Origin: Myxococcota bacterium
GTDB lineage: Bacteria > Myxococcota > JACRCW01
Length of the DNA stretch: 20,831 nucleotides
Direction: 5' to 3'
Assembly: GCA_040752415.1 (NCBI GenBank)
Contig: JBFMGU010000189.1
Span: 1-20,831 of the forward strand
Part shown: positions 3,909-19,716 of the stretch, in pieces
How the letters are laid out: each line of letters opens with the position of its first letter
How positions within the stretch are numbered: the stretch's first letter is position 1
Notes under the pieces: model-generated
What the model was told of the DNA's origin: nothing
Databases searched by the model: none
Seen by the model: only the letters and a program-made list of their open reading frames with translations
Translations under genes and position numbers: made by a program

Positions 3909-4397
3909 TCACCCCGACGACGACGACGAGGTGGTGCCCCGCAGGATGGGCGGCGGCGGCTCCACCGGCGGGCGCGGTCCGGGCGTGCGCGTGTCCCCGG
4001 AGCTGGGCGGCTCCCCCACGGCGCGACGCAGCAGCGTGGTGGCGCTCTGGCCCACGTCGGAGGGATGGACCTTCAACGTCACCATCAGTCCCACCGCCTC
4101 CACCGCCTGCAGCACCATGGCCAGCGCCACCGCGGCGGTCATCACCACCGTGGGCGCGTGACGACGGGTGAAGCGCCAGGTCAACGCCGCACCCAACACC
4201 AGGTTCCCCACCACCGCGGCCGCGGTCAGCCCCCACGCCACGCCGTGCGCCCCACCCCAGCGCTTGTCCGCCGTCGCCACGAAGACGCCCGCGGTGATGA
4301 GCGAGGTGACCATGAACACCGCGCTCACCGGCACCAGCACGGCCACGCCCAGGCGGAACCGGGGCGCCGCCGCGTCGGGTGGTGCGCCGCCGGTCAT
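3909..4397 (-). CDS. Small membrane protein (about three TM helices, Pro/Ser-rich tail)
   Basis: ATG at 4397 overlaps the TGA of the upstream gene (ATGA); three hydrophobic segments. Confidence 0.7.
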   Translation of the reverse strand: MTGGAPPDAAAPRFRLGVAVLVPVSAVFMVTSLITAGVFVATADKRWGGAHGVAWGLTAAAVVGNLVLGAALTWRFTRRHAPTVVMTAAVALAMVLQAVEAVGLMVTLKVHPSDVGQSATTLLRRAVGEPPSSGDTRTPGPRPPVEPPPPILRGTTSSSSSG

Positions 4398-5794
4398 GGC
4401 TTGGACGCGGGAGCGGCCGGTTGCGCGGGTTGCGCAGGCGCCGCGGCGGGGGCGGGGTTGCGGGCGGCCGGCGGGTCGTCGCTGAGGACGGCGCGGTGCT
4501 CGGTGAGCATGAGCAGGATGCTTGCCACCACGCCAATGGTGGCCAGGGTCAGCGGACCGCCGACGTAGAGCGGGACCCCGGTGAGCGTGGTGGCCAGGTG
4601 CACGTTGTCCCAGGTCTCCCGCGACACCGCCACCGTGGGCCCCCACGCCGACCTGGGCACCACGTTGATGACGGCCAGCGCCACGTAGGAGAACGGCATG
4701 GCGGCCAGCACGCCCACCAGTGGCGAGACCAGCGTGGCCACCACGCCAAAGGCCGCAATGTAGGGAGCCAGCCGTCGACCCAGCCCCGGCCGCTCCGCGC
4801 CCCGGATGCGCTCTTCATCCCGGCAACACCCCGACTTGCTCACCCGGATGCGGCCCAGGTCCGCGTTGTCCACCAGCGTCACGACGAGCGAGAACGCCAG
4901 CCAACCCACCACGCCCACCGCCATGGGAATCAGCGCCAGGTAGGGAACCAGCGGGAAGATGACGGGGTAGTTGTACGTGCCGTCCGGGTTCACGTTCTTG
5001 TCCTCGAGGAGCTTGGTGGCCGCCGGCGCGAACAGGTAGAACTCCGCGGAGCTGGTGAACGTGGACAGCACGGTCATCACCGTCATTCCCGCCATCACCG
5101 TCAACCCCGCCATGAGGATGCCCAGCCCCTGCAGCACGGCGTGGACCTCGCTCTCCGCGTTCTGGTCGATGATCACCTGCGTCCACACCTCGGTGAGGTC
5201 CGGGTCCTTGGTGGTGGCCAGGCGCTGCTTGAGCGCTTCCATGCCGGCGGCGTCGGTGCCCAGGCGCTCCTGCAGGCGCGGGTCATCCACCGCCACGCGA
5301 CCGCCGCTGGCCAGCGTGCGCGCCAGTTGATCCAGCGACGCGAGCAGGTTGTCCAGGCCACGGGCCTTGATGCTGCCGCGGCGCAGGCTCTTGGCGCTGC
5401 GTCGGTCCAGGATGGACGCCTGCATGTTCCACATGCCGCCGCTGGCATCCATGGTGCTCACCACCACGAGCTCGGCGCCCAGCGCGTCGGCCACCTCGGC
5501 CACGCAGGACTCCGCGTCGCAGCCCATGAGCTGGTCCTGCGCGGCCTTGCCCACAATGCCCACGATCTCCTGGCGGCTCAGCACGTGGAACGCGGCGTGA
5601 CGGGAGAGCGCGTCGGTGAAGGCGCGTTCCACGCCGGCGGCGGCGTTCACCACGTCGGGCGAGGCGCTGGCGGGAGTGCGGAGCGGCAACACCACCGCGC
5701 GCGTGGCCTTCTGTTCCGCGGGAGCGCCCGCCGCCTCCTGGGCCAGCAGGGACGCCGGTGCCAACCACGCCAGCAGCAACAGGGACGTCTTCAC
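4394..5794 (-). CDS. Membrane protein: signal peptide, TolB-N/CsgG-like alpha/beta domain, multi-TM C-terminus (paralog 2)
   Basis: Signal peptide MKTSLLLLAWLAPASLLA; GCDAESCVAEVADALGAELVV motif; several TM helices; GCCR motif; GTGA overlap with the upstream paralog. Confidence 0.8.
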   Translation of the reverse strand: MKTSLLLLAWLAPASLLAQEAAGAPAEQKATRAVVLPLRTPASASPDVVNAAAGVERAFTDALSRHAAFHVLSRQEIVGIVGKAAQDQLMGCDAESCVAEVADALGAELVVVSTMDASGGMWNMQASILDRRSAKSLRRGSIKARGLDNLLASLDQLARTLASGGRVAVDDPRLQERLGTDAAGMEALKQRLATTKDPDLTEVWTQVIIDQNAESEVHAVLQGLGILMAGLTVMAGMTVMTVLSTFTSSAEFYLFAPAATKLLEDKNVNPDGTYNYPVIFPLVPYLALIPMAVGVVGWLAFSLVVTLVDNADLGRIRVSKSGCCRDEERIRGAERPGLGRRLAPYIAAFGVVATLVSPLVGVLAAMPFSYVALAVINVVPRSAWGPTVAVSRETWDNVHLATTLTGVPLYVGGPLTLATIGVVASILLMLTEHRAVLSDDPPAARNPAPAAAPAQPAQPAAPASKP

Positions 5795-7122
5795 TTGGCA
5801 CCTCCGGTTGCCTTGGCCTCGGTGGCGTCGACCTCATCCACGGTGGCGGGTGACGGCCAGAACAAGAGCGCCAGGCCCACCGGCACGCCTACCAGCAGCG
5901 GCCATCCCGCCGAGCAGAACGCACCCATGAAGCCCCAGGTGTAGGCCAGCAGCGCCGGGTAGTAGCCGGGGTCGGTGAAGTCATAGGGGGTGCCCGGGTC
6001 CGTGACGCCAATGCCCAGCCGCGGCAGCAGCGCGTACGCCGTGCCCCAGATGGAGAGGGTGAAGAAGATGGAGGCAATGGAGAGCGGTCCGCTGAGGAGC
6101 ACCAGCAACGCGGAGGCGCGCTGCGGTCCGTTCTCGTTCTCCGCGTCGGTGATCTCCGCGTCCTCGCGGCAGCACCCGTCGGAGCGGACCTGCACGTGGC
6201 CCATGTTGAGGGCGTCCACCAGCGTCAGCGCCACCCCGGCCAGGCCGAAGGTGAAGGCGAAGGGCAGGGTCATCAGCGTGGCGGTGCCGGCCAGCAAGGT
6301 GAGCGGGAAGTTCCGCAGGTTGGTGAAGGCGATGATGCTGCCCAGCGAGAAGAGCACCGCCACGTTGACGGTGATGGCCGCGGCGCCGAACAACAACGCC
6401 TCCGTCACGGCGAGCGCGCGGCTCTCCCGGTTGGTGTCGATGAGGAACTGGGTGAGTGCCTCGGTGCTGGTGAGCTCGCCGTGCTGCTCGCGGAACTGCT
6501 TGAAGGCGGCCAGGTCGTCGGCGGAGGAGAAACCCAGGCGCTTCTGCGCCGCGGCGCCCTCCATCTGCGTGGTCTTCTGTTTGCCGCTCAGCGCCGCGGC
6601 CACCTCGTCCACCTGCGCCAGCAATGCCTGCATGCCGCGCCCCTGCACGCTGGCCCGACGCACCGCGGTCCCGTCGCGCTGGTCCACCAGCGTGGAGCTC
6701 CACAACAGGTTCTGGCCCAGCGGCGCAATCTCCCCGGTGACGACGTAACGCGCCCCCAACGCGCCGGCGATCTCCGCGAGACACGCCTCATCCGTGCAGC
6801 CCACCTGCTGCCGCTCCGCCTCGTTCTTGAGCAGCTCCGCCACCTCGTCGGCGCTGATCACGCGGTAGCCGCCAATCTCATCCAGCTTGGCGGTGAGGAC
6901 GTTGGTGAGCAGCGTGCTGCCTTCCCGCGCGCGCACGTCCTCCACGCGCACGCTGACGGGCATGACCGCCATGCCTTCCGTGCTGGCGGTGGTTCCTCCC
7001 AGGGCCTCGGCGGCGGGGACCGAGGTGCCGCCGGTGGGCGGGGAGGCGGGAGGCGTGTCGGCGTGCGCCAGCAGCGGAGCGCCAACCAGCAGCACGACGG
7101 GAATGCCGAGGGAGAAGCGCAT
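5791..7122 (-). CDS. Membrane protein: signal peptide, TolB-N/CsgG-like alpha/beta domain, multi-TM C-terminus (paralog 1)
   Basis: Start MRFSLGIPVVLL with AGAGGAA upstream; GCTDEACLAEIAGALGARYVVTG motif; TM helices; GCCR motif; aligns by eye to 4394-5794 along most of its length. Confidence 0.8.
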   Translation of the reverse strand: MRFSLGIPVVLLVGAPLLAHADTPPASPPTGGTSVPAAEALGGTTASTEGMAVMPVSVRVEDVRAREGSTLLTNVLTAKLDEIGGYRVISADEVAELLKNEAERQQVGCTDEACLAEIAGALGARYVVTGEIAPLGQNLLWSSTLVDQRDGTAVRRASVQGRGMQALLAQVDEVAAALSGKQKTTQMEGAAAQKRLGFSSADDLAAFKQFREQHGELTSTEALTQFLIDTNRESRALAVTEALLFGAAAITVNVAVLFSLGSIIAFTNLRNFPLTLLAGTATLMTLPFAFTFGLAGVALTLVDALNMGHVQVRSDGCCREDAEITDAENENGPQRASALLVLLSGPLSIASIFFTLSIWGTAYALLPRLGIGVTDPGTPYDFTDPGYYPALLAYTWGFMGAFCSAGWPLLVGVPVGLALLFWPSPATVDEVDATEAKATGGAK

Positions 7123-7217
7123 GGTGTTCCTCTGTGGAAGCCTGGCGTAGCCCCACCTTGCCCGTGCACGCAACGGTTCGCGTGGCCCACCGCGCCAAAC
7201 GCGACGCGAGGTGAGAC

Positions 7218-8003
7218 TCAGCGGCCGTTCAGGGACCAGTCGAACTCCAGGAACTCCACCTTCAGCGTGGGGGCGAGCGTGCGCAGCTTCTCGTAGTCGT
7301 CGTGGCGGAGGTACTGCGCCAGGTAGCCGCCCAGGCTGCGCGCCTGCTTCTCGAAGTCCGCGCGGAACCACTTGAAGACGGGGGAGAGCTTCATGCGCCC
7401 CGCCGCCAGGTCCACCACGTTGTGCTCCGGGTCATTGATGAAGCGGTCCGCGGCGTCCTCCAGTTGGCTGTGCAACGCATCCGCGCTGTAGGCGGTGTGA
7501 CGCAGCTTGGGGGAACCGCGCGCCGCCGTCACCAGCGCAAAGTGCACGCGTGGATCATGGAAGCGCTCCCGCAGGATGCGGTGCTGGATGTCCTCGAGCG
7601 AGAGGGCGGAGCCACCCAGCACCTGCAGCGGGATGAACTCCCGGTCCAAGGCGCTGCCGGGCAGCAGCCCAATGGCGCGGATGCCCTCCACCGGGTGATT
7701 CTCGACGATGAGCTTCACCGCGTACGCGTTGTAGGCATTGATCCAGAAGGCCAGCTGCTGCGCCTCACTCCAGCCCGCGTACTGCGCCGCCGTCACCGAC
7801 TGCAGCGTGGCGAGGTAGCGGTCCAGCCCGGCGTGGTCCTCGCGCAGCGTGTTGTAGGAGACCATCCCGTCGTAGACCACGCCGCGCAGCGTCTCCGTCC
7901 ACGCGTTGTGCTGGTGATCAAACGCGCTGGGCGCGGCGCGCAGGTGCGGGGCAAGGACGGCCAGCAGACCGAGGGAGAGGAGGAACCGGCGGGAGGACAT
8001 CAT
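7218..8003 (-). CDS. DUF547 domain secreted protein
   Basis: Signal peptide; LAFWINAYNA, SLEDIQHRILR, DPRVHFAL, LSPVFKWFRADF and terminal DWSLN motifs. Confidence 0.9.
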   Translation of the reverse strand: MMSSRRFLLSLGLLAVLAPHLRAAPSAFDHQHNAWTETLRGVVYDGMVSYNTLREDHAGLDRYLATLQSVTAAQYAGWSEAQQLAFWINAYNAYAVKLIVENHPVEGIRAIGLLPGSALDREFIPLQVLGGSALSLEDIQHRILRERFHDPRVHFALVTAARGSPKLRHTAYSADALHSQLEDAADRFINDPEHNVVDLAAGRMKLSPVFKWFRADFEKQARSLGGYLAQYLRHDDYEKLRTLAPTLKVEFLEFDWSLNGR

Positions 8004-9966: not shown

Positions 9967-12900
9967 ATGCGCGTTCCGGTTGCGTGGGTGTTCCTGGTGT
10001 GCGCAGCGTCGTGTCTTCCTGGCCGCCATGACGACGTGACTTTGGGTGCCGGTCGCGCCGAGCTGGTGGTGGAGCCGCGGCACGTTGAGTGGGGTGAGCA
10101 GGTGGTGGGCACGCGTCACGTGATGGCCGTGCGCCTCCGCAACGAGGGAGATGCGCCACTGGTCATCCGCAACGCGCTGTCTTCCGGTGATGACGCGTTC
10201 TCCGTGACGTCCTTTCCCGCCCGGTTGGAGCCCCGCTCGGAAGGCACGCTGGAGATCCTCTTCACGCCCAGCGTGGTGGACCGCTTCGCCGGCGCGGTCA
10301 ATCTCCAGACGTCGACCGACGAGGTGCATGCCACCGTCGAGCTGCGCGGCGCAGGCGTGGATCCCCCGTCCTGCGACGACGACAATCCCTGCACGCTGGA
10401 TGCCTGGCACCATCAGCAACAGCTCTGTCTCCATGACCCGGTGGCCGCCCCGTGCGACGACGGGAACGCCTGCACCACGGGAGACTCGTGCGTGGACGGG
10501 GAATGCCTGGGCGTCCCGCTGACCTGCGACGACGGCGTCGACTGCACCGTCGACACCTGTGATGCCGTGCGGGGGTGCCAGGCCGTCCCCGTCGACGCCG
10601 CGTGCGCCACCGACGAACCCTGTGTCTCCGCGCGCTGCGACGTCACCGCGGGCTGCGTGCGGACACCGTCCGCCGACGGCTCACCGTGCGGCGGTGTGGA
10701 TGAATGCCGCTCCGTATCCTTCTGCGTGAGCGGCAGCTGCCGCACCCTGCCGGTTCCCGACGGCATGCCATGCGACGACCACAACGAGTGCACCTCCGAC
10801 GACGCGTGCAGCGACGGAGCTTGCGTGGGGCGCGGCGGCGCGGCGGCGGCCACGGTCCACCTTGGATGCCCGGGTCTGTGTGGGAATGGGCAACGGGATG
10901 AGTGCATGGGCTTCGGCCTGCGCGAGATCTGCGACGGTGACGACGTCCCGTTCACCTGCGAAGCGCTGGGATACGCGGGAGGGGAGGTGCGCTGCACCGC
11001 GGGCTGCGTGCTCGACCCCCAGGGCTGCCGGCCGTGCGCGGAGCATCCCGCCATTGACGCGTGCGCCAACACCAACCTCCCGAGCGACGACGCGTGGGCG
11101 CTCTCGCTGGCAACCCGCGGGGACACCGAAATCGGCGCGGCGTGGCTCGCGCTGGATGCGCAGGGGCAGTACGTGACGCATTTCGCCGTCGTGGACGCGG
11201 AGCTGCACGTGCAGGCGTACTCGAGCTGCCTGGGCATTCCCGCCTCACAGGTGGCGCTGGCGGGAACGGAATCCGGTTGGCTGATGGCGTCGGTCAACGG
11301 GCGACTCCGTGTCCATCGTCTCAGCGCGAGTGGCGCCATGCTGGGAGAGCGCGTGGTCACCACGACGGTGCAGGGATACACCGGTGATGTCGCCCTCGCG
11401 CCTGGCGGCGAGGGACGCGTGCTCATGGTGTGGCAACAACAGGCCTATGGGTTCGGCGTGACCCTGATGGCGGCGTTGTTGGATGAGGAGGGCGAGGAGG
11501 TGTGGAGCACGCCCTTGGATGACGAAGGGTACTGGGAACCCTTCACCGCGGTGACGGCGGGGAATCGCCTGGTCGTCGCCGCGGCGCGCAGTGGGAGCGG
11601 CATCACCGTGTTCATTCTCAGCGCGGATGGTGAGGTGGTGGCCATGGGTGAGCCACTGGGGTCCTTCACCACGTATCCCCGGCTCGCGTGGGACGGACAG
11701 GTGGTTCACCTCACCGCGACCGCCTACACCGCCGAGCCCGCGACGCTGTATGTCACCCTCGACGTCGACGGCCAGGCCCTCGGCGAGCCAGCGGTCATTG
11801 GCGACCACCGGTACCTCAATCCCGCACCGGTTGCCGTTGTCGACGGTGTCACCCATGCGCTCCTGGGCGGATACACCGGCACCACCTGGTACGCGTCACA
11901 CCTGGACCTGATCACTCCCAGCCAACCCGCACGCTCGCCGCTCACCGTGGACCAGCAATATGGCGCCGCCATCCGTCACGACCTGGTGGCCCTGGGCGGC
12001 TCCCTCGTCGTGGGTTGGCTCGGCGACCACCTCCCCGACTGGTATCCCGATTCGCGGCGACTTCGTTTCGCGAGAATCAACCCTGCGCGCCTGGACGCGC
12101 CCGCGCTGCCGATTGCTCCGGCCGCGGCGTTCGCGTGTCCGTCGCCGGATCCTCCCGAGACCACCTGCGGTCTGCACAACTGCGGCAATCAGGTGATGGA
12201 TGCGTGCACGGTCTGCGCCTATGGCGACTCTGGTTGTGACGACTACGAGCAGGTGCAGGAGGCCTGCGACGGTGATGCCGCGTCGCCCCCCGGGTGTGAG
12301 TCGTTTGGGCTGGGTCCGGGCGTGACGCGTTGTGATTCGCATTGTCAGTGGGACGTGACGTCGTGCACCGGTTGCGTGGAGCACCCGCTGGTGCAGGACT
12401 GCGGCGTCCTGGTGGCCGGCAGTGGCGCGGTCCGGAGCATCGCCCTGGCGCGTGCGCCGGATGGCACCGTGGCCGTCGCGCTTCCCTATGGCGTCGACTA
12501 CTGGGCCATGGTCACGCGGTTCCTCCGCCTGGATGCGCAGCTGGGATTGTTGTCCGAGGACTGTCTTCCCTTGCCCGGCGCATGGCAGACCAGGCTTGCG
12601 CACGACGACAACGGTTGGCTCCTCCTCAACCTCTCCGCGCCCAACAGCGGCCCCGCGACGCTGCACCTGCACGCGGTTTCGGGTGAAGGGAACAACATCA
12701 CGCCGCTGAACCTGTCGCTGCCGGCGGAGTACGACCTCGAGCGGTCCGGGGTCTCTCCAGCCGACAACGGGCCACTCGTCGCCACCGTCGTCGGTCGTAG
12801 CATCATCATGACGTCGGTGGGCGGTGGCGCCAGCCCGGTCACCTGGACATTCTCCGACAACATGACCCTCGAGGATCTCGTCATGGTCGACGGTGGCGCC

Positions 12901-13410
12901 GTCGTCATCGGGCCCATGTTGGAGCAGACGTTCGCGCGTCGGTTGAATGCGGATGGCAGCGCCGGGTCCTGGAACATCACCGGCGTGGGCACCGGCGCCC
13001 GGCTCATTCCGCATGGTGACGACGTGTTCGCGTTTGGCTTCAGCAGCGCGGGTTACCTCCAGATGCGTCGCCTCTCCGTTGCCACCGCGGCGCCGCTGGA
13101 TGACGCGCCCATCCCCCTCGCCGGACTACCCACGGATACCCAGTTGCTGGAGGGCGCCTCGACGGGGGACGCGGTGGCGCTGCTGCTGCGACGCTGGAGC
13201 ACGGAAGAGGCCTGGGTCCGCCTCGTCGACGTGGAGGACGGCACCTGGATTGGAGAACCCATCCCGCTCACGCTGGCCGGTGGATGGAGCTGGGACGCGC
13301 GCCTGCTGCCGGAACCCGGTGGCGTCATCGTCGTGTGGACCAGCCTCCGCCCCGGCGGCAACACCCCCAGCGACATCCGCTACGCGCGCATCTCGACGGG
13401 CGGACCGTGA
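9967..13410 (+). CDS. Large Cys-rich surface lipoprotein: ASH/choice-of-anchor-D Ig-like domain, CDDGNxCT repeats, two duplicated Cys-knot + beta-rich modules
   Basis: AAS-C lipobox; LRNEGDAPLVI...FTP...G domain; repeats CDDDNPCTLD, CDDGNACTTGD, CDDGVDCTVD, CDDHNECTSDD; two CGN...E.CDG...C..LG/FG...RC...C..D modules. Confidence 0.85.
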   Translation: MRVPVAWVFLVCAASCLPGRHDDVTLGAGRAELVVEPRHVEWGEQVVGTRHVMAVRLRNEGDAPLVIRNALSSGDDAFSVTSFPARLEPRSEGTLEILFTPSVVDRFAGAVNLQTSTDEVHATVELRGAGVDPPSCDDDNPCTLDAWHHQQQLCLHDPVAAPCDDGNACTTGDSCVDGECLGVPLTCDDGVDCTVDTCDAVRGCQAVPVDAACATDEPCVSARCDVTAGCVRTPSADGSPCGGVDECRSVSFCVSGSCRTLPVPDGMPCDDHNECTSDDACSDGACVGRGGAAAATVHLGCPGLCGNGQRDECMGFGLREICDGDDVPFTCEALGYAGGEVRCTAGCVLDPQGCRPCAEHPAIDACANTNLPSDDAWALSLATRGDTEIGAAWLALDAQGQYVTHFAVVDAELHVQAYSSCLGIPASQVALAGTESGWLMASVNGRLRVHRLSASGAMLGERVVTTTVQGYTGDVALAPGGEGRVLMVWQQQAYGFGVTLMAALLDEEGEEVWSTPLDDEGYWEPFTAVTAGNRLVVAAARSGSGITVFILSADGEVVAMGEPLGSFTTYPRLAWDGQVVHLTATAYTAEPATLYVTLDVDGQALGEPAVIGDHRYLNPAPVAVVDGVTHALLGGYTGTTWYASHLDLITPSQPARSPLTVDQQYGAAIRHDLVALGGSLVVGWLGDHLPDWYPDSRRLRFARINPARLDAPALPIAPAAAFACPSPDPPETTCGLHNCGNQVMDACTVCAYGDSGCDDYEQVQEACDGDAASPPGCESFGLGPGVTRCDSHCQWDVTSCTGCVEHPLVQDCGVLVAGSGAVRSIALARAPDGTVAVALPYGVDYWAMVTRFLRLDAQLGLLSEDCLPLPGAWQTRLAHDDNGWLLLNLSAPNSGPATLHLHAVSGEGNNITPLNLSLPAEYDLERSGVSPADNGPLVATVVGRSIIMTSVGGGASPVTWTFSDNMTLEDLVMVDGGAVVIGPMLEQTFARRLNADGSAGSWNITGVGTGARLIPHGDDVFAFGFSSAGYLQMRRLSVATAAPLDDAPIPLAGLPTDTQLLEGASTGDAVALLLRRWSTEEAWVRLVDVEDGTWIGEPIPLTLAGGWSWDARLLPEPGGVIVVWTSLRPGGNTPSDIRYARISTGGP

Positions 13411-13411
13411 A

Positions 13412-14152
13412 TCACGGCCCCTTCAGCGTGGCCTCCACGTCCCACAGGTGCATGCGGTGGAAGTGCACCTTCCCCGAGGGGAGCAGCAGGAACTCGTCCC
13501 AGACATGGGGCACCACCACGCCGGACGGGACGGTGCGGTGATCGCTCAGCTCCATGCGACAGCGCACCGGCAGCCGCAGCGCATTGACGGTGTATTCCAC
13601 GGCGTGCACCAGGCGCGTGCGCGGATGGACCTCCAGCACGAACGTGTCCCGCGTCCCCTGCCGGTAGCGCAGCTGCAAGCGCTCCATCTCCCCGTGACGT
13701 GGCAGTCGCAGCGCCTCCACGTCGTCGGGCGCGGCGGCTTCCCAGGGATGCAGCAGCCACATCAGCGCTTCCAGGTGGAAACCACCGCCCAGGCCCCACG
13801 GTGCGTGGTACGTCTCTCCGTCACGACGGGCGGTGAATCCCTCCGGCGTCACCTCCCAGAGCACCCGCTCGTTCCCGCGCGTGCCCTGCTGCCACGCGGT
13901 GCGGGCGCGGAAGTCGAATCCGGCGCGGGTGTGCCAGTGCGCGGGCATGTCCGGGTAGAGCAGCTCCCCCACGCCGGGAGCGAATTCCTCCTCGGCAAAG
14001 AAGGTCAACGTGGCCAGCGTGCTCTCCCCCACGTGCGCCAGCCGCACCTCACGCCACAACGTCCACGCATCCAGCGCGGCGCCGCGGGCGCGGTACCAGG
14101 TGCAGCCGTGGGAGAGGAGCAGCAGCGCGCACACCCACAGGCGCGCGGACAT
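13412..14152 (-). CDS. Hypothetical lipoprotein, beta-rich (possibly LolA-like fold)
   Basis: LLSHG-C lipobox; start overlaps the stop of the cytochrome gene (TGATG). The fold guess is inference only. Confidence 0.7.
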   Translation of the reverse strand: MSARLWVCALLLLSHGCTWYRARGAALDAWTLWREVRLAHVGESTLATLTFFAEEEFAPGVGELLYPDMPAHWHTRAGFDFRARTAWQQGTRGNERVLWEVTPEGFTARRDGETYHAPWGLGGGFHLEALMWLLHPWEAAAPDDVEALRLPRHGEMERLQLRYRQGTRDTFVLEVHPRTRLVHAVEYTVNALRLPVRCRMELSDHRTVPSGVVVPHVWDEFLLLPSGKVHFHRMHLWDVEATLKGP

Positions 14153-16032
14153 CAGGGCACCACAATCCGACCCGGCGCGCCCTCTTCACCCTGCTCGGTG
14201 TGACAGTTCATGCAGTTGGTGTCCATCTGCGCCGTGAACATGCGACGCACCCGTCCCCCGTAACGCACCTCCGCGCGGTACGGCGGCTGCACCGGGAAGC
14301 GGGTGTAGAAGTTGCCGTTCCGGTTCACCGTGAGATCGACGATGCGCTCGTTGGCGTCGGTGATGCGCACGGTGACGCCGCTGGGCGGAACGTTGCTCTC
14401 GCAGTCGTCGCGGTCATGGAACGTGCGCATCACCGTGCCCGCCACCACGAAATCATCCGGCGCGCGCTCCATCTCGAGGTGACACTCGATGCAGTTGCGC
14501 CCGGGGTGCATCTCCGCGGCGGAGCGGCCGGTCACGCGGTGCTCATTGGTGGGCCAGTAGCTTCCGGTGCCGCAGGTGGTGGGCGGGGGACCGGCGTCGG
14601 TGTCGGGGAGCACGCCACCGTCGGCGTCGCAGGCGTAGCGCGGCGCACCCGCGGCCACGAAGCGCCGCATCAGCTCCATCTCTCCCGACGTGGGCACCAC
14701 CGACCCCGGCGGCATGGACTGATCCAGCATGCGCAGGTAGCTGCTGCGCCACCGCGTCATGGACGGATACGCGGGATGCGTGGACGGTGTGAGGCCCGCC
14801 TCGTGGGTATCCAGCGGCACCTGCCCGCCACCCTCGACGTGACACGGCACGCAGTAGCGGTTCACCAGGTCGCGCGCCACCTGGTAGCCCACGTCTCCGC
14901 ACTCCGGCGGCGTGGGGATGGGACCCGCGTCGGGCGGAGGCGGGATGATGGGGTTGCCGTTGCCGTCGCACTTGTAGGGATGCGCGCCCGCGGCAATCCA
15001 CTGCAGCACCTGCGCCCGCTCGGCGCCGGTGATGTCGGTGCTGCCTTCCGGGGGCATCTTGCGGAAGCCCGCGTCGACGATGCGCTCGGCCACCGCCAGG
15101 TACATGGGCTGCGGCGGCGGGAGGCGCGCCTGCCAGTGGTAGTCCTCCCAGGTCACCAGCGGGTCGCGCGCGCCCACGGTGGGCGGATTGTTGTGACAGC
15201 CCGCGCAGCGCACCAGCAGCGTCTGCCGCACGTCCTCGTAGCCCATCTCCGCGCACTCCCCCTCCGGCTCGTAGAACTGGCGCGCGGCGTCGACGGGACC
15301 GGGGTCGCCCCCGTCGGGAAAGAGGTTCCCGCCGCCCTGGCCGGGCTTGAGCGTGATCGTCATGAGCAGCGTCATCTGCGGGTCAATGCAGTCGCGGAAG
15401 GTGCCCACCGGGATGTCGTGCTGCGCGCCATCCAGCAACGCGGTGCCCTCCATGATGAGCTTGTCGCCGTCCCAGCGCGCGCTCGCGTTCATCGTCGTCA
15501 CGCTCTGCTTGCCCTTGAGGTCCACGGTGACCTCCGCGGTGCCACTTCCCTCCAGCGTGCTGAGGTTGCGCGCGGTGAAGGTGATGATGGGGAAGTTGGA
15601 CGCGTCCAGCTGCTCCAGCATGTTGGTGCGGATGTCCTCGCGGTCGCGCTCGCTGAAGGTGGAGCCGCGCGTCTCCTCGAAGGCGTCGCGGTACTCGGGG
15701 CGGTCCGGGTCCAGCCCGTCGGTGTGCACGGTGGCGCTGAGCGTGCCGTTCTGCGGATTGTCGCGGTCCAGCGTGAAGTCATGGTCGGTGGTCAGCGCGG
15801 CCACGGCGTGGTGGTGGAAGAAGTTGCAGTCCCCGCGCGTGGTGATCTTCTTGTTGAGCAGGAGCAGCCGCGACTCCTCCGGGACCAGCACGTAGGCCAC
15901 GTCGCGCCCGCCCATGCGGATGACGCCGTCACCGCCGCTGGAGGGAGGCGGCGGAGGCGGGGGATTGCAGACGTCACATTGCGCGGCAATCAACAGCGCG
16001 CACAGGGGGAGCAGCAGGCGGATAGGACGCAT
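14152..16032 (-). CDS. Secreted/lipoprotein fusion: YceI-like domain + four CXXCH c-type heme motifs
   Basis: Leader MRPIRLLLPLCALLIAAQ-C; YceI-like segment (ESRL...HHH...G...ATV...L...LDASNFPIITF...DLKG...EGTA); CAGCH (15193-15207), CVPCH (14839-14853), CIECH (14479-14493), CMNCH (14200-14214). Confidence 0.85.
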   Translation of the reverse strand: MRPIRLLLPLCALLIAAQCDVCNPPPPPPPSSGGDGVIRMGGRDVAYVLVPEESRLLLLNKKITTRGDCNFFHHHAVAALTTDHDFTLDRDNPQNGTLSATVHTDGLDPDRPEYRDAFEETRGSTFSERDREDIRTNMLEQLDASNFPIITFTARNLSTLEGSGTAEVTVDLKGKQSVTTMNASARWDGDKLIMEGTALLDGAQHDIPVGTFRDCIDPQMTLLMTITLKPGQGGGNLFPDGGDPGPVDAARQFYEPEGECAEMGYEDVRQTLLVRCAGCHNNPPTVGARDPLVTWEDYHWQARLPPPQPMYLAVAERIVDAGFRKMPPEGSTDITGAERAQVLQWIAAGAHPYKCDGNGNPIIPPPPDAGPIPTPPECGDVGYQVARDLVNRYCVPCHVEGGGQVPLDTHEAGLTPSTHPAYPSMTRWRSSYLRMLDQSMPPGSVVPTSGEMELMRRFVAAGAPRYACDADGGVLPDTDAGPPPTTCGTGSYWPTNEHRVTGRSAAEMHPGRNCIECHLEMERAPDDFVVAGTVMRTFHDRDDCESNVPPSGVTVRITDANERIVDLTVNRNGNFYTRFPVQPPYRAEVRYGGRVRRMFTAQMDTNCMNCHTEQGEEGAPGRIVVP

Positions 16033-16175
16033 GATTTCGTCGGCACGAGGGGCCCGGGACGTCGGGCGGAGTGCGCGCAGCATGCCATGGCCACCCCGGC
16101 GCTGCCACGGGGTCGGCCGGCCGCGTCCCCGCGCGTGGGCCCCAGCTTGAGATGACGCCGCCACGGGACGCGACG

Positions 16176-16655
16176 TCAACCCGCGTCCGGCGGGCGCGGC
16201 GTGAAGCTGGTGCGGATGTCCTCGTCCAGGGATCCCTGCGCCAGCGCCATCTCCGTCCAGGAGAACAGCGTGGCGGTGGCCAGCGCCATGAAGCCCAGGC
16301 CGAACGTCGCCACCGGCACCACCTCCGCGTCCCGCATGTTGAACACCCCGATGGCCAGCAGCTCCAGGATGGTGAGGATGAAGCTGAAGAGCGCCACGTA
16401 GACGGTGAGGATGGCGTGGCGGATCATCCGGGCGCGACGGGTCATGACGTCCACCTGGCTGCGGATGCTGGTGATGCGCGCCTGGTGCTTCTCCTCGTCG
16501 TCGGCGCGGAGCTGGCGGGCCTCGCGGTTCAGCTCACGCGCGCGGCCGGTGATGTAGATGAAGCGGTTCTGCAGGCTGGAGTTGTAGAAGATGACGCTGG
16601 TCAGCGCGATGCCGGGTGAAAGCGCGTGGGTGATGAGCTCGGTCATGATGGGCAT
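16176..16655 (-). CDS. DUF2721-like membrane protein
   Basis: ALSPGIALTS..., NRF...RAREL, RRARMIRHAI, two further TM helices, EMALA. Start at 16655 or 16646. Confidence 0.8.
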   Translation of the reverse strand: MPIMTELITHALSPGIALTSVIFYNSSLQNRFIYITGRARELNREARQLRADDEEKHQARITSIRSQVDVMTRRARMIRHAILTVYVALFSFILTILELLAIGVFNMRDAEVVPVATFGLGFMALATATLFSWTEMALAQGSLDEDIRTSFTPRPPDAG

Positions 16656-16662
16656 GCGCAGC

Positions 16663-16668
16663 AGCATA
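16663..16668 (-). promoter_or_regulatory. Putative -10 element (TATGCT) of a leaderless transcript
   Basis: TAnnnT hexamer 7 nt upstream of ATG 16655; no Shine-Dalgarno visible. Confidence 0.4.
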
Positions 16669-16717
16669 GATGTCCGCGTGCTGGTCGCGGAACGCCGCGG
16701 TCAACAACGGCGCGCAC

Positions 16718-17296
16718 TCACTCCCGTTGTTCTTCAACGATCATCCTGACGCCGTATTTCGGCCCCACGTTCGCGGCCCGGACGGCGCCGGGGTCCGCCT
16801 TGGTGCTGGCCAGGCGCAGACGGAAACGACGCAACAGTGTGGCAATCACCAGTTTCATCTCGTGCGTGGCCATGGAAGCGCCCAGACAGCGACGTGCGCC
16901 GCCACCAAACGGAATGAACTCGAAGGGTGAGTACTGCCGTTCCAGGAAGCGCTCCGGACGGAAGCGCAGCGGCTCCGGGTAGACCTTCTCATTGAAGTGC
17001 ACGATGCCGATGCCCGCGCTCACCCCGATTCCCGCCGGCAGCTCGTACCCGCCGAGGCTCAAGGGACGCAGCAGACGTCGTGGGCTGGGCGCGGGAGCGA
17101 GCGGGTAGCGTCGCAACGTCTCCTGCACCACCGCCTCCAGGTACGGCAGTCCCGCCAGCTCCGCCGGAGTCGCTCCCGCGCCAACTGCGTCGAGCTCGGT
17201 GCGCAGACGCTCCAGCACCGCCGCGTTCTCCCGTTGGTGCAGCGCGTGGAACGCCCAGGAGATGGCAATGGCCGTGGTCTCATGCCCGGCGAGTGC
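16718..17296 (-). pseudogene. Cytochrome P450, C-terminal ~190 aa only (CYP110-like), 5'-truncated
   Basis: LAGHETT (I-helix), ETLR (ExxR), PERF and PFGGGARRCLG heme-Cys motifs are intact. The frame is closed ~10 codons upstream of AGHETT by the TetR stop, so the N-terminal half is absent. Confidence 0.9.
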
Positions 17297-17323: not shown

Positions 17324-18037
17324 CTACCGCTCGCCGCGCACCGCGGCCAGCCAAGCGCCGATGCCGTCCAGCACCCGGTCCAGGCCGAAGGCGAAGCGCT
17401 CGGCGTGGTCGGGGTCGGCGCCATCGACGACGCGCGCCCGCAGGTGCGGGTAGTCGCCGCCGGCCAGTGCTTCGCGCAGGTACGGGCCGATGGTGCGGCG
17501 CCACTCGTCCTCGGTGAGCCCACTGTTCCGCTCGGCGCGGCGCTCGGCCAGCTCCCGCTGGACCGCGCCGAACGTGAACGACATCACTGCGTCGAGCAGC
17601 GCGGCGGCCCGGTCGATGTCCTGGTCGGCCTGGCGGGCGATGGCCAGCGAGGCCTCGGTCTGGCGCAGCGCGTTCGGGCCGAAGCGGGGCCGGGTGGGCG
17701 CCTCGAACGCGAGCCATGGATGGGCCAGCAGGATCCGCCGGGTGCGGCCGGCCAGCGCGCGCAGGTCGGCGCGCCAGTCGCCGGTGGGTGCCGGCGGCGG
17801 CTCGCTGCCCCACGCGGCGTCCACGATCAGCTCCACCACGTCGTCCCGGCCGGACACGTGCCGGTACAGCGACATCGTGCCGGCGCCGAGCTCGGCGGCG
17901 AGCCGCCGCATGGACACCGCGGCCAGCCCCTCCGCGTCGGCCAGCCGCAGCGCCGCCGCCGCGATCCGGTCACCGTCCAGCCCGGCCCGCCGTCGCTCCG
18001 CCGCCCGCCGCCAGATCCGCCCCGGGTCATCCACCAT
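17324..18037 (-). CDS. TetR/AcrR family regulator with TetR_C-type ligand domain
   Basis: AGGAGG RBS; HTH EGLAAVSMRRLAAELGAGTMSLYRHV; HPWL; FAFGLDRVLDG. Confidence 0.95.
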   Translation of the reverse strand: MVDDPGRIWRRAAERRRAGLDGDRIAAAALRLADAEGLAAVSMRRLAAELGAGTMSLYRHVSGRDDVVELIVDAAWGSEPPPAPTGDWRADLRALAGRTRRILLAHPWLAFEAPTRPRFGPNALRQTEASLAIARQADQDIDRAAALLDAVMSFTFGAVQRELAERRAERNSGLTEDEWRRTIGPYLREALAGGDYPHLRARVVDGADPDHAERFAFGLDRVLDGIGAWLAAVRGER

Positions 18038-18045
18038 GCGTCGGC

Positions 18046-18112
18046 CTCCTTGCGTACAGCTTACTGGATGCGTACGGTGTACCCAATCGATGCGTACGGT
18101 GTACGCAAGGAG
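18046..18112. promoter_or_regulatory. Divergent control region with TetR operators TGCGTAC-N3-GTACGCA
   Basis: Perfect palindrome at 18091-18107, one-mismatch copy at 18069-18085, degenerate copy at 18051-18067; a 13 bp perfect inverted repeat 18046-18058/18100-18112 includes both RBS cores. Confidence 0.9.
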
Positions 18113-18117
18113 ACCCG

Positions 18118-19716
18118 ATGGAACAGGTGGATGTGCTGGTGGTCGGCGGCGGCACGGTGGGGCTGACGGCGGCCGCATTCCTGGCCAAGCACGGGGTACC
18201 GCCGCTGGTGGTGGAGCGGCACGCCGGCCCGAACGTGCACCCGCGCGCCACTGGCGTGGCGCTCCGCACCGTCGAGCTGCTCCGCGAGCTGGGCGCCGAG
18301 CAGGCGCTGAACGAGCTGGCCGTGGACCTGTCCAGCGCGTTCGGCAAGGCGTCCGCGCGCACCGTCCGCGAGCTCGACCGGGCCGAGCTGCCCGCGCACC
18401 GCGCGGTCCGCCGGGCGACGACCGATGAGAACGCCGCGATCAGCCCGTCCCACCTGCGCGGCACCTGCGCCCAGGACCGGTTGGACACCGTGCTGCTGGC
18501 CGAAGCCACCCGCCGCGGCTCCGAAGTCCGCTACGGCACCGAACTGGTCGCCCTCGACCAGCACCCCGGCCACGTCACCGTCACCCTGCGCGGCCCGGCC
18601 GGCGACGCAACGGTGGAGGCCGCCTACGTGGTCGCCGCGGACGGTGCGGGCAGCACCGTGCGGCGGCTGCTCGGCATCCGGGAGTCCGGCCCGGGGCCCC
18701 TCGGTGACTGGGTGCTCAACATCCTGTTCGAGGCCGACCTGGCGCCGCTGCTCGGCGACCGCCGGTTCGCGCTGTGCCAGATCGCCCACCCGGACGCCCC
18801 CGGCCTGGTGGTAGCGATCGACGGCGAGCGCCGCTGGGTGTTCCACGCCAACGCCGCCGCGGCCGACGCCGGCCCCGAGGCGTGCCGCGCGCTGGTCCAC
18901 ACCGCGCTGGGCGACCCCAGTCTCGACGTCAAGATCGTCAGCGCGCTCCGCTGGCGCCCGCAGTCGCGGCTCGCCGACCGGTTCCGGGACGGCCGGGTGT
19001 TTCTGGCCGGTGACTCCGCGCATGCGATCTCGGCGCTCGGCGCGTTCGGCATGAACACCGGCATCGCCGACGCCCACAACCTGGCCTGGAAGCTGGCCCA
19101 CGTGCTCCAGGGCCGCGCCGGCGCCCCGCTCCTCGACACCTACGAGCAGGAACGCCGACCCGTCGCGGCCATCACCAGCGAGCAGGCCCTGCTGCGCGCG
19201 TCCCACCCCGAGCTGCACTGGGACCGCGGCCCCGGCACGGCCGCCCGCCGCGCCGCCGTGGGCATGCTCAACGCCCCGGTCGTCGTCCTCGGCTATCGCT
19301 ACACCTCCACCGCCGTCCGCGGCACCGAACCGCTGCCCTCCACCGAGGACATCACCGCCGACCTCGACGGCTCCCCCGGCACCCGCGTCCCCCACGTCTG
19401 GCTGAACCGAGCGGACACGCGGCTGTCCACACTGGACCTGGTGGCCGGTCGCTGGACGCTGCTGGTTGGGCCGGAGGGGACGACCTGGCAGCAGGCGACC
19501 GCCGAGGCCGCCCGGCACGCCGGCACGGAGCTGGCCTGCTACCGGATCGGTGTCGACGTCGAGGATCCGGAGGACCGCTTCCCGACCGCGGCCGGCATCC
19601 GTCGGGAGGGGGCTTTGCTCGTCCGGCCGGACGGTTTCGTCGGCTGGCGCTCACCTACCGCCGCCGGCGCTCCCGAGTTGCCCGCCGTCCTGGCCACCCT
19701 GATCGGCCGTCGGTGA
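18118..19716 (+). CDS. FAD-dependent aromatic monooxygenase (FAD_binding_3, RdmE/TcmG-like)
   Basis: AAGGAG RBS; VVGGGTVG, VVAADGAGS, FLAGDSAH...GMNTGIADAHNLAWKL, PGTRVPHVW and LLVRPDGFVGWR motifs. Confidence 0.95.
   Translation: MEQVDVLVVGGGTVGLTAAAFLAKHGVPPLVVERHAGPNVHPRATGVALRTVELLRELGAEQALNELAVDLSSAFGKASARTVRELDRAELPAHRAVRRATTDENAAISPSHLRGTCAQDRLDTVLLAEATRRGSEVRYGTELVALDQHPGHVTVTLRGPAGDATVEAAYVVAADGAGSTVRRLLGIRESGPGPLGDWVLNILFEADLAPLLGDRRFALCQIAHPDAPGLVVAIDGERRWVFHANAAAADAGPEACRALVHTALGDPSLDVKIVSALRWRPQSRLADRFRDGRVFLAGDSAHAISALGAFGMNTGIADAHNLAWKLAHVLQGRAGAPLLDTYEQERRPVAAITSEQALLRASHPELHWDRGPGTAARRAAVGMLNAPVVVLGYRYTSTAVRGTEPLPSTEDITADLDGSPGTRVPHVWLNRADTRLSTLDLVAGRWTLLVGPEGTTWQQATAEAARHAGTELACYRIGVDVEDPEDRFPTAAGIRREGALLVRPDGFVGWRSPTAAGAPELPAVLATLIGRR

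Follow-up and report, generated by a model that had tools for sequence, protein, structure and literature searches.

The stretch of DNA analysed here (the window) comprises 20,831 nucleotides and corresponds to positions 1 to 20,831 of contig JBFMGU010000189.1 from the Myxococcota bacterium assembly GCA_040752415.1. It carries a gene for a 626-amino-acid (aa) protein (P0001) that joins an N-terminal domain with the predicted fold of YceI, a bacterial lipocalin, to four c-type haem motifs (Table 1). Behind its signal peptide come a Pro7 linker and an N-domain of some 200 aa; two monohaem domains that are homologous to each other follow, and a dihaem domain forms the C-terminus. An initial annotation made from the letters of the window had proposed a lipoprotein-like leader, a poly-Pro linker, a YceI-like segment at ~15345-15900 and four haem motifs in this layout. 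Leader and linker are indeed present, the N-domain was delimited to residues 35-234, and the motifs CAGCH, CVPCH, CIECH and CMNCH are arranged as described and kept in the relatives of the protein.

Table 1. Features of the YceI-cytochrome gene and of the two genes next to it; positions refer to the window.
Feature	Position	Strand	Basis or remark
Whole gene: 626-aa, probably exported protein with YceI-like barrel and tetrahaem c-type cytochrome (P0001)	14152..16032	(-)	stop codon 14152..14154
Signal peptide to Cys19 (probable lipidation site)	15976..16032	(-)	Cys19 conservation; atypical lipobox AAQ-C
Pro7/Ser-Gly linker NPPPPPPPSSGG	15931..15966	(-)	sequence; predicted local distance difference test (pLDDT) <50 over residues 1-28
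Divergent YceI-like beta-barrel (predicted), residues 35-234; conserved C69, H73, H75, D110, R115, F152, H205, C215	15331..15930	(-)	fold and conservation
Monohaem class-I cytochrome c domain 1; CAGCH 15193..15207, putative axial Met326 in KMPP, C260/C355 flanking	14965..15270	(-)	Cytochrome_CBB3
Monohaem class-I cytochrome c domain 2; CVPCH 14839..14853, putative axial Met440 in SMPP, C378/C468 flanking	14593..14910	(-)	homology to domain 1
Dihaem beta-sandwich domain (predicted), residues 503-626; CIECH 14479..14493, CMNCH 14200..14214; conserved M508, M598, C487/C544	14155..14526	(-)	model, conservation
Downstream 246-aa putative lipoprotein, no known family	13412..14152	(-)	ATG overlaps stop codon of the cytochrome gene (TGATG)
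Upstream DUF2721 membrane protein (PF11026, E 8.3e-18)	16176..16667	(-)	same strand, 143 bp ahead; operon membership uncertain

The window has a G+C content of about 70%, so that long open reading frames (ORFs) occur on both strands, and spurious ones are common at such a composition. The gene might thus be a fusion in decay or a frame that is open by chance in high-GC DNA. Its codon-position GC of 0.72/0.54/0.84 is, however, of the coding type and shows the same pattern as in the neighbouring genes. A word-index homology search yielded six relatives with 39-51% identity, full-length ones among them, and NCBI names three of the six as derived from Myxococcota metagenome-assembled genomes (MAGs). 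The individual domains are modelled with confidence. Every motif is conserved, which effectively refutes a non-functional ORF; we rate its probability as next to nil. The ATG at 16032 was taken as start codon because the starts of the relatives align there. A longer frame with a TTG start at 16179 was rejected, as all relatives begin at the position of this ATG. Nor are the four CXXCH motifs due to chance: among 20000 shuffles of the 626-aa protein, none contained three or more of them, two contained two and 298 contained one.

The leader of the protein reads MRPIRLLLPLCALLIAAQC. The consensus of a lipobox is [LVI][ASTVI][GAS]C, and the end of the leader, LIAAQ-C, deviates from it by Gln at position -1. 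The assignment as a lipoprotein is based not on this consensus but on Cys19 itself, which is unchanged in 37 of 37 aligned family members. The protein is therefore probably exported and lipid-anchored. In many members, a second Cys is found 1-4 residues past the invariant one: it forms C19-D-V-C22 here (15964..15978 (-), residues 19-23) and CGGC, CPDC, CQGC or CTC in the N-termini of others. Each domain has one conserved Cys pair (C69/C215, C260/C355, C378/C468 and C487/C544), in agreement with an oxidising, extracytoplasmic location. In NCBIfam, neither the 626-aa protein nor nine relatives matched a curated family, and a single-sequence search of the PDB with the whole protein gave no match.

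By its predicted fold, the N-domain is a YceI-type, lipocalin-like barrel that is divergent in sequence. An AlphaFold2 model of residues 30-232 has a pLDDT of 75-95. When it was compared with the PDB using Foldseek, all 21 matches at E<=1e-3 were YceI structures. The best of them is the lipocalin BcnA (5ixh; template modelling score TMt 0.84), and the others include 7bwl, 1y0g, 1wub, 2x32/2x34 (X158), 3hpe, 3q34, BcnB (5ixg) and Campylobacter YceI entries. The ESM Atlas model of the domain agrees on a barrel; its template modelling (TM) score is 0.79/0.80 against a YceI cluster, and a cluster of cytochrome b561/YceI fusions is matched with 0.68. Sequence comparisons point in the same direction. 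The Pfam profile for YceI, PF04264, was found at E<=0.1 in five of seven close relatives (best 9.5e-6) and at E<=0.01 in eight of 12 further barrel-holders, and YceI is the sole non-cytochrome Pfam family matched repeatedly among the relatives. One relative (P0004) bears a precomputed PF04264 label and another (P0002), one of the three from Myxococcota MAGs, the NCBI name 'YceI family protein'. The best non-cytochrome PDB sequence match of the family profiles is again BcnA 5ixh (E 0.033 and 0.0033). Hence, the YceI identity proposed in the initial annotation stands as far as the fold is concerned, whereas the Pfam score of the domain itself stays below the cut-off (see below).

The barrel belongs to a subfamily with a His and Cys set of its own. 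Across 37 sequences, C69, H73, H75, D110 and F152 are invariant, and conservation is 90% or higher at L107, R115, G162, H205, P208 and C215; in an alignment of 38 domains, H73, H75, C69 and C215 are each present in 37 and H205 in 35. In the model, H73 and H75 are spaced i, i+2 directly ahead of strand 75-79. BcnA 5ixh has a Phe opposite H205 in the one PDB alignment spanning that stretch, which makes H205 specific to the subfamily. These residues might form a metal or cofactor site, in which a candidate H73/H75/H205 cluster, stapled by C69-C215, would be the catalytic end fed by the haems, for example of a reductase or oxidase acting on a lipid-derived or small-molecule substrate. The conservation of the three histidines and the spacing of H73 and H75 would suit such a role. 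On the other hand, Pfam and NCBIfam scans of the protein matched no known metal-site family. Histidines in the first strands are common in canonical YceI proteins as well, so that one of H73 and H75 may be an ancestral residue with a structural role. We regard a catalytic site in the barrel as improbable.

The N-domain is followed by two monohaem domains that are, as anticipated, homologous to each other (31% identity, E 4e-9). Cytochrome_CBB3 (PF13442) matches two stretches of the protein with E 7.7e-13 and 49 bits against a cut-off of 27. In domain 1, M326-P327-P328, C260 and C355 are each at least 90% conserved. In domain 2, C394, C397, H398 and P441 are invariant across 99 sequences, and M440 is at least 90% conserved. 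An alignment with cytochrome c6 places the MP of the latter opposite the MPP methionine of the family, and we take this methionine of c6 to be the axial haem ligand. Judged from these motifs, both domains are class-I c-type cytochromes with predicted His/Met coordination, to which haem would be attached covalently at CXXCH. Among proteins of solved structure, FoxE (5mab) is closest to the tandem pair in sequence, with a similarity that is weak (E 8.9e-5, 24 bits) and covers both domains; with another family profile, 5mab was found at E 1.2e-3. PccH (4rlr) is next with E 4.4e-4. PSCyt1 (PF07635) was matched by three of seven close relatives.

For the C-terminal domain, Pfam returned nothing above the cut-off and only weak matches at the level of motifs, such as CarboxypepD_reg with E 0.0091. 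A model based on a 99-sequence alignment predicts a beta-sandwich with a pLDDT above 90. Foldseek searches of the tetrahaem module against the PDB gave no match at E<=1e-3 and found solely generic Ig-like sandwiches. In the ESM Atlas, the domain has TM scores of 0.85-0.89 to unnamed Myxococcota clusters and of 0.74 to a CarboxypepD_reg cluster. Met508 and Met598 are near-invariant and each precedes a CXXCH; their positions suggest His/Met ligation for both haems of this domain, too. A Cytochrome P460-like identity was considered and dropped, since the matches cover the CXXCH stretch alone and lie below the cut-off. As a widespread domain with neither a Pfam family nor a solved structure, this dihaem beta-sandwich is a reasonable target for structural biology.

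The word-index search gave the impression of a tiny family. This was an artefact, overturned by an exhaustive profile search that found 5778 library proteins at E<=1e-3 and 717 clusters at E<=1e-30, the latter mostly through the cytochrome part. The best 150 of the 5778 matches were examined, and the proportions given here describe the top of this list. Together with P0002 and P0007 they make up 152 proteins, which were classified with purpose-built domain hidden Markov models; the unrelated P0008 was excluded. The barrel is present in 38 of the 152. Among these 38 proteins, 35 contain 2-5 CXXCH motifs; the other three are short proteins, of which P0041 and P0046 at least look truncated. The commonest form combines the barrel with two monohaem domains (21 proteins), and ten of the 38, including the protein of the window, have the dihaem domain in addition. 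The remaining 114 proteins are without a barrel and consist mostly of tri-haem proteins of ~290 aa (69) or tetra-haem lipoprotein-like ones (29). The dihaem domain is found in 113 of these 114, and some proteins contain two to three copies of it. No standalone barrel relatives were found among shorter proteins. A search of species-representative genomes yielded no close relative: of 96 pattern matches, none was confirmed. The protein of the window thus joins a very common cytochrome module to a barrel subfamily that is seldom seen without cytochromes and is fused to them near-obligately.

These proportions bear on the question which part of the protein does the work. It is conceivable that the haem chain alone does so, as in the barrel-less relatives, either as a periplasmic or surface shuttle or as an oxidoreductase of a metal such as Fe(II), like FoxE. 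The barrel would then be a non-redox module for lipid binding, membrane association or scavenging. The prevalence of barrel-less proteins and the reach of the cytochrome part across clusters agree with this, and so does the finding that, among proteins of solved structure, the tandem pair comes closest to an Fe(II) oxidase (PMC10654088). Moreover, YceI proteins such as BcnA are described to capture both antibiotics and molecules derived from lipids, and to do so without any redox chemistry themselves (PMC9113575). By contrast, the fusion in 35 of the 38 barrel proteins argues for a functional coupling of barrel and haems, the search among shorter proteins gave no standalone barrel, the similarity to FoxE is weak, and no foxY/foxZ-like neighbours (PQQ (pyrroloquinoline quinone) protein, transporter) were found in the window. 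We consider a haem chain working by itself somewhat unlikely.

We tentatively favour, with a little less than even confidence, a reading in which the protein is exported, lipid-tethered and active in electron transfer; its YceI barrel would offer a lipophilic ligand to a wire of four His/Met haems. The divergent barrel would hold a hydrophobic ligand, most plausibly an isoprenoid quinone or another membrane-derived lipid, on a Pro-rich tether ahead of it and with short linkers behind. The haem chain would start with the two monohaem domains, class-I His/Met cytochromes of the kind seen in FoxE/PSCyt1, and continue with the dihaem beta-sandwich, which is probably His/Met-ligated as well. Electrons would move between the ligand at the barrel mouth and the haem chain, and the latter would pass them to, or take them from, a periplasmic or extracellular partner. 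Such a mode of working may be likened to that of X158 with X183/X132 in the cellulose-related protein Cbp2D and to that of the lipocalin BcnA with its cytochrome LcoA.

Several points weigh against this electron-transfer model. The N-domain reaches 18.7 bits with PF04264 (E 0.0023, residues 82-207), under the gathering cut-off of 23.7 bits, which all 12 further barrel-holders miss as well (best 22.6 bits). YceI proteins in general do not share H73/H75/H205 and C69/C215; with such a subfamily-specific set, the barrel may have a function other than quinone carriage. The 114 barrel-less proteins out of 152, with the dihaem domain in all except one, imply that the haem chain has a function for which no barrel is needed. 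In the models, the inter-domain geometry has low confidence (predicted TM scores of 0.40 and 0.50), so they do not establish that the barrel mouth is close to haem 1. Respiratory or quinone-related neighbours were found neither among the window ORFs scanned nor in three related loci. What the analysis shows is the reading frame, the order of the domains, the conserved motifs, the predicted YceI fold and the near-obligate fusion of the barrel subfamily to cytochromes; we infer that haem is attached, that the protein is lipidated, which ligand it holds, and that and in which direction electrons flow.

A further-reaching version, which we think is unlikely, regards the protein as a self-contained, lipid-anchored quinol or lipid-radical oxidoreductase outside the cytoplasmic membrane. 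Its barrel, equipped with the His-x-His/His/disulfide set, would extract or present a redox lipid, and its haem wire would end in a fold class new for haem proteins. The quinol of this phylum is probably menaquinol. If this version were true, the quinone pool could be tapped, or lipid radicals detoxified, without an integral membrane cytochrome.

The closest described counterpart is Cbp2D of Cellvibrio japonicus with the architecture CBM2-X158(YceI-like)-FN3-X183(cyt c)-DUF1587-X132(cyt c), where CBM denotes a carbohydrate-binding module (PMC8981238; also PMC10916295, PMC12542752). The structure of X158 from Saccharophagus contained ubiquinone-8 (UQ-8; PMC8981238, PMC10916295, PMC12542752), and X183 (CjX183), a class-I cytochrome with His/Met coordination, has a terminal disulfide that closes it (PMC8981238). 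Sheet S1 of the same paper has 21 rows in which X158 is combined with X183/X132; in this sheet, all of them belong to Gammaproteobacteria or uncultured organisms and none to Myxococcota, and the Oleiphilus row is without a CBM (PMC8981238). Consequently, the suggestion of the initial annotation that the architecture may be undescribed cannot be upheld in its general form.

Like Cbp2D as portrayed there, the protein of the window is a secreted single chain in which a YceI-like barrel is N-terminal to several c-type cytochrome domains. The conserved Cys pairs around its monohaem domains recall the terminal disulfide of CjX183, and the X158 structures 2x32/2x34 are among the Foldseek matches of its barrel. 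The two proteins differ in several respects. Pfam finds neither CBM nor FN3 here, the host is a member of the Myxococcota and not a Gammaproteobacterium, and there are four predicted haems instead of the two ascribed to Cbp2D. The protein is probably lipid-anchored, whereas Cbp2D is targeted to carbohydrate. Its C-terminal domain is predicted to be a dihaem beta-sandwich, not X132. No chain recognisable as X183 was found among the PDB sequence matches listed. The window offers no cellulose or LPMO (lytic polysaccharide monooxygenase) context.

The second counterpart is the YceI lipocalin BcnA, which is linked to the cytochrome b561 LcoA and in certain genomes forms a fusion with it (PMC9113575); hence, the pairing of YceI with cytochrome b561 to which the initial annotation referred is real and published. 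Its authors propose that the cytochrome re-reduces ubiquinone bound to the lipocalin and thereby quenches lipid peroxyl radicals (PMC9113575). In both cases, the genes link a YceI barrel with a cytochrome, and 5ixh as well as the b561/YceI fusion cluster are among the structural matches of the barrel mentioned above. Here, however, the cytochromes are soluble c-type domains, whereas LcoA is a membrane b561. Furthermore, the barrel has a conserved Cys pair, while BcnA and its homologues are said to be free of cysteines (PMC9113575). Cytochrome b561 (PF01292) was detected neither in the protein nor in any of the 17 window ORFs scanned.

With FoxE, the dihaem Fe(II) oxidase of Rhodobacter ferrooxidans whose haems are His/Met-ligated and which contains a disulfide (PMC10654088), and with Planctomycete PSCyt1 proteins, the protein shares tandem class-I monohaem domains with the signature 'MPP ... 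W..GA'. FoxE has, in contrast, neither a YceI barrel nor a dihaem beta-sandwich. Canonical YceI proteins, i.e. E. coli YceI (1y0g), TT1927b (1wub) and HP1286 (3hpe), have the same barrel fold (E 1.9e-8 to 7.1e-7). Compared to them, the barrel studied here is ~30 residues longer, has an extra helix (128-141), shows an identity of only 9-17%, scores under the Pfam cut-off and is fused to cytochromes.

Literature searches on YceI with c-type cytochromes or YceI-cytochrome c fusions led mainly to Cbp2D and to nothing on a protein from Myxococcota. In the literature searched, the Myxococcota YceI-cytochrome family is undescribed, while the class of architecture is already in print. New are the barrel subfamily, which is divergent and marked by three His and a conserved Cys pair, as well as what is joined to the YceI barrel: FoxE/PSCyt1-like domains with predicted His/Met haems and a dihaem beta-sandwich for which there is no Pfam family or solved fold.

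To date, two YceI-cytochrome pairings have been published, Cbp2D/E in the field of LPMOs and cellulose breakdown, and BcnA/LcoA in that of lipid peroxidation. To our knowledge, electron transfer to a barrel-bound quinone has been shown for neither of them. The proteins analysed here, in which YceI barrel and c-type haems go together in 35 of 38 cases, constitute a third independent lineage and strengthen the case for a cooperation between barrel and cytochrome. With 626 aa, the protein of the window is smaller than the 1,122-aa Cbp2D and lacks carbohydrate-binding domains, which commends it as a test case for barrel-cytochrome coupling.

The gene context argues neither for nor against any function. 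The TGATG overlap indicates that the downstream 246-aa protein is probably co-translated with the YceI-cytochrome. It has no Pfam or NCBIfam family, no PDB match and no relatives in the word-index search, and its gene looks like that of an orphan partner. A scan of 13000..17200 for promoters and terminators called none between the upstream DUF2721 gene and the YceI-cytochrome gene and nothing useful elsewhere. Three MAG loci of the subfamily with barrel and two haems were located with a 5-sequence alignment. Their neighbours are neither conserved nor redox-related. The sole recurrent neighbour, present at two of the three loci, is a gene divergently upstream (L001 7249..7923 (-) and L002 640..1584 (-)). 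Its product starts with VIVTCP.C..(Q/K)YRVRDE, by eye a candidate zinc-ribbon.

Some other genes of the window deserve mention. The gene at 9967..13410 (+) converges on the end of the 14152..16032/13412..14152 operon. Its 1147-aa product is a secreted protein that contains DUF7107 and a Dictyostelium CTDC repeat besides an Ig domain of the ASH/Cep192_D4/HYDIN type. At 17716..19716 (+), a flavin adenine dinucleotide (FAD)-dependent aromatic-ring hydroxylase is encoded; its best NCBIfam matches, both below their cut-offs, are MbnF (408.6 bits, cut-off 800) and the aklavinone 12-hydroxylase RdmE (390.5 bits, cut-off 700). Finally, the adjoining genes 4394..5794 (-) and 5791..7371 (-) overlap by 4 nt. 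Both display weak similarity to DUF3280 and to 'mod_pep_cyc', and this common similarity makes it probable that they are paralogues.

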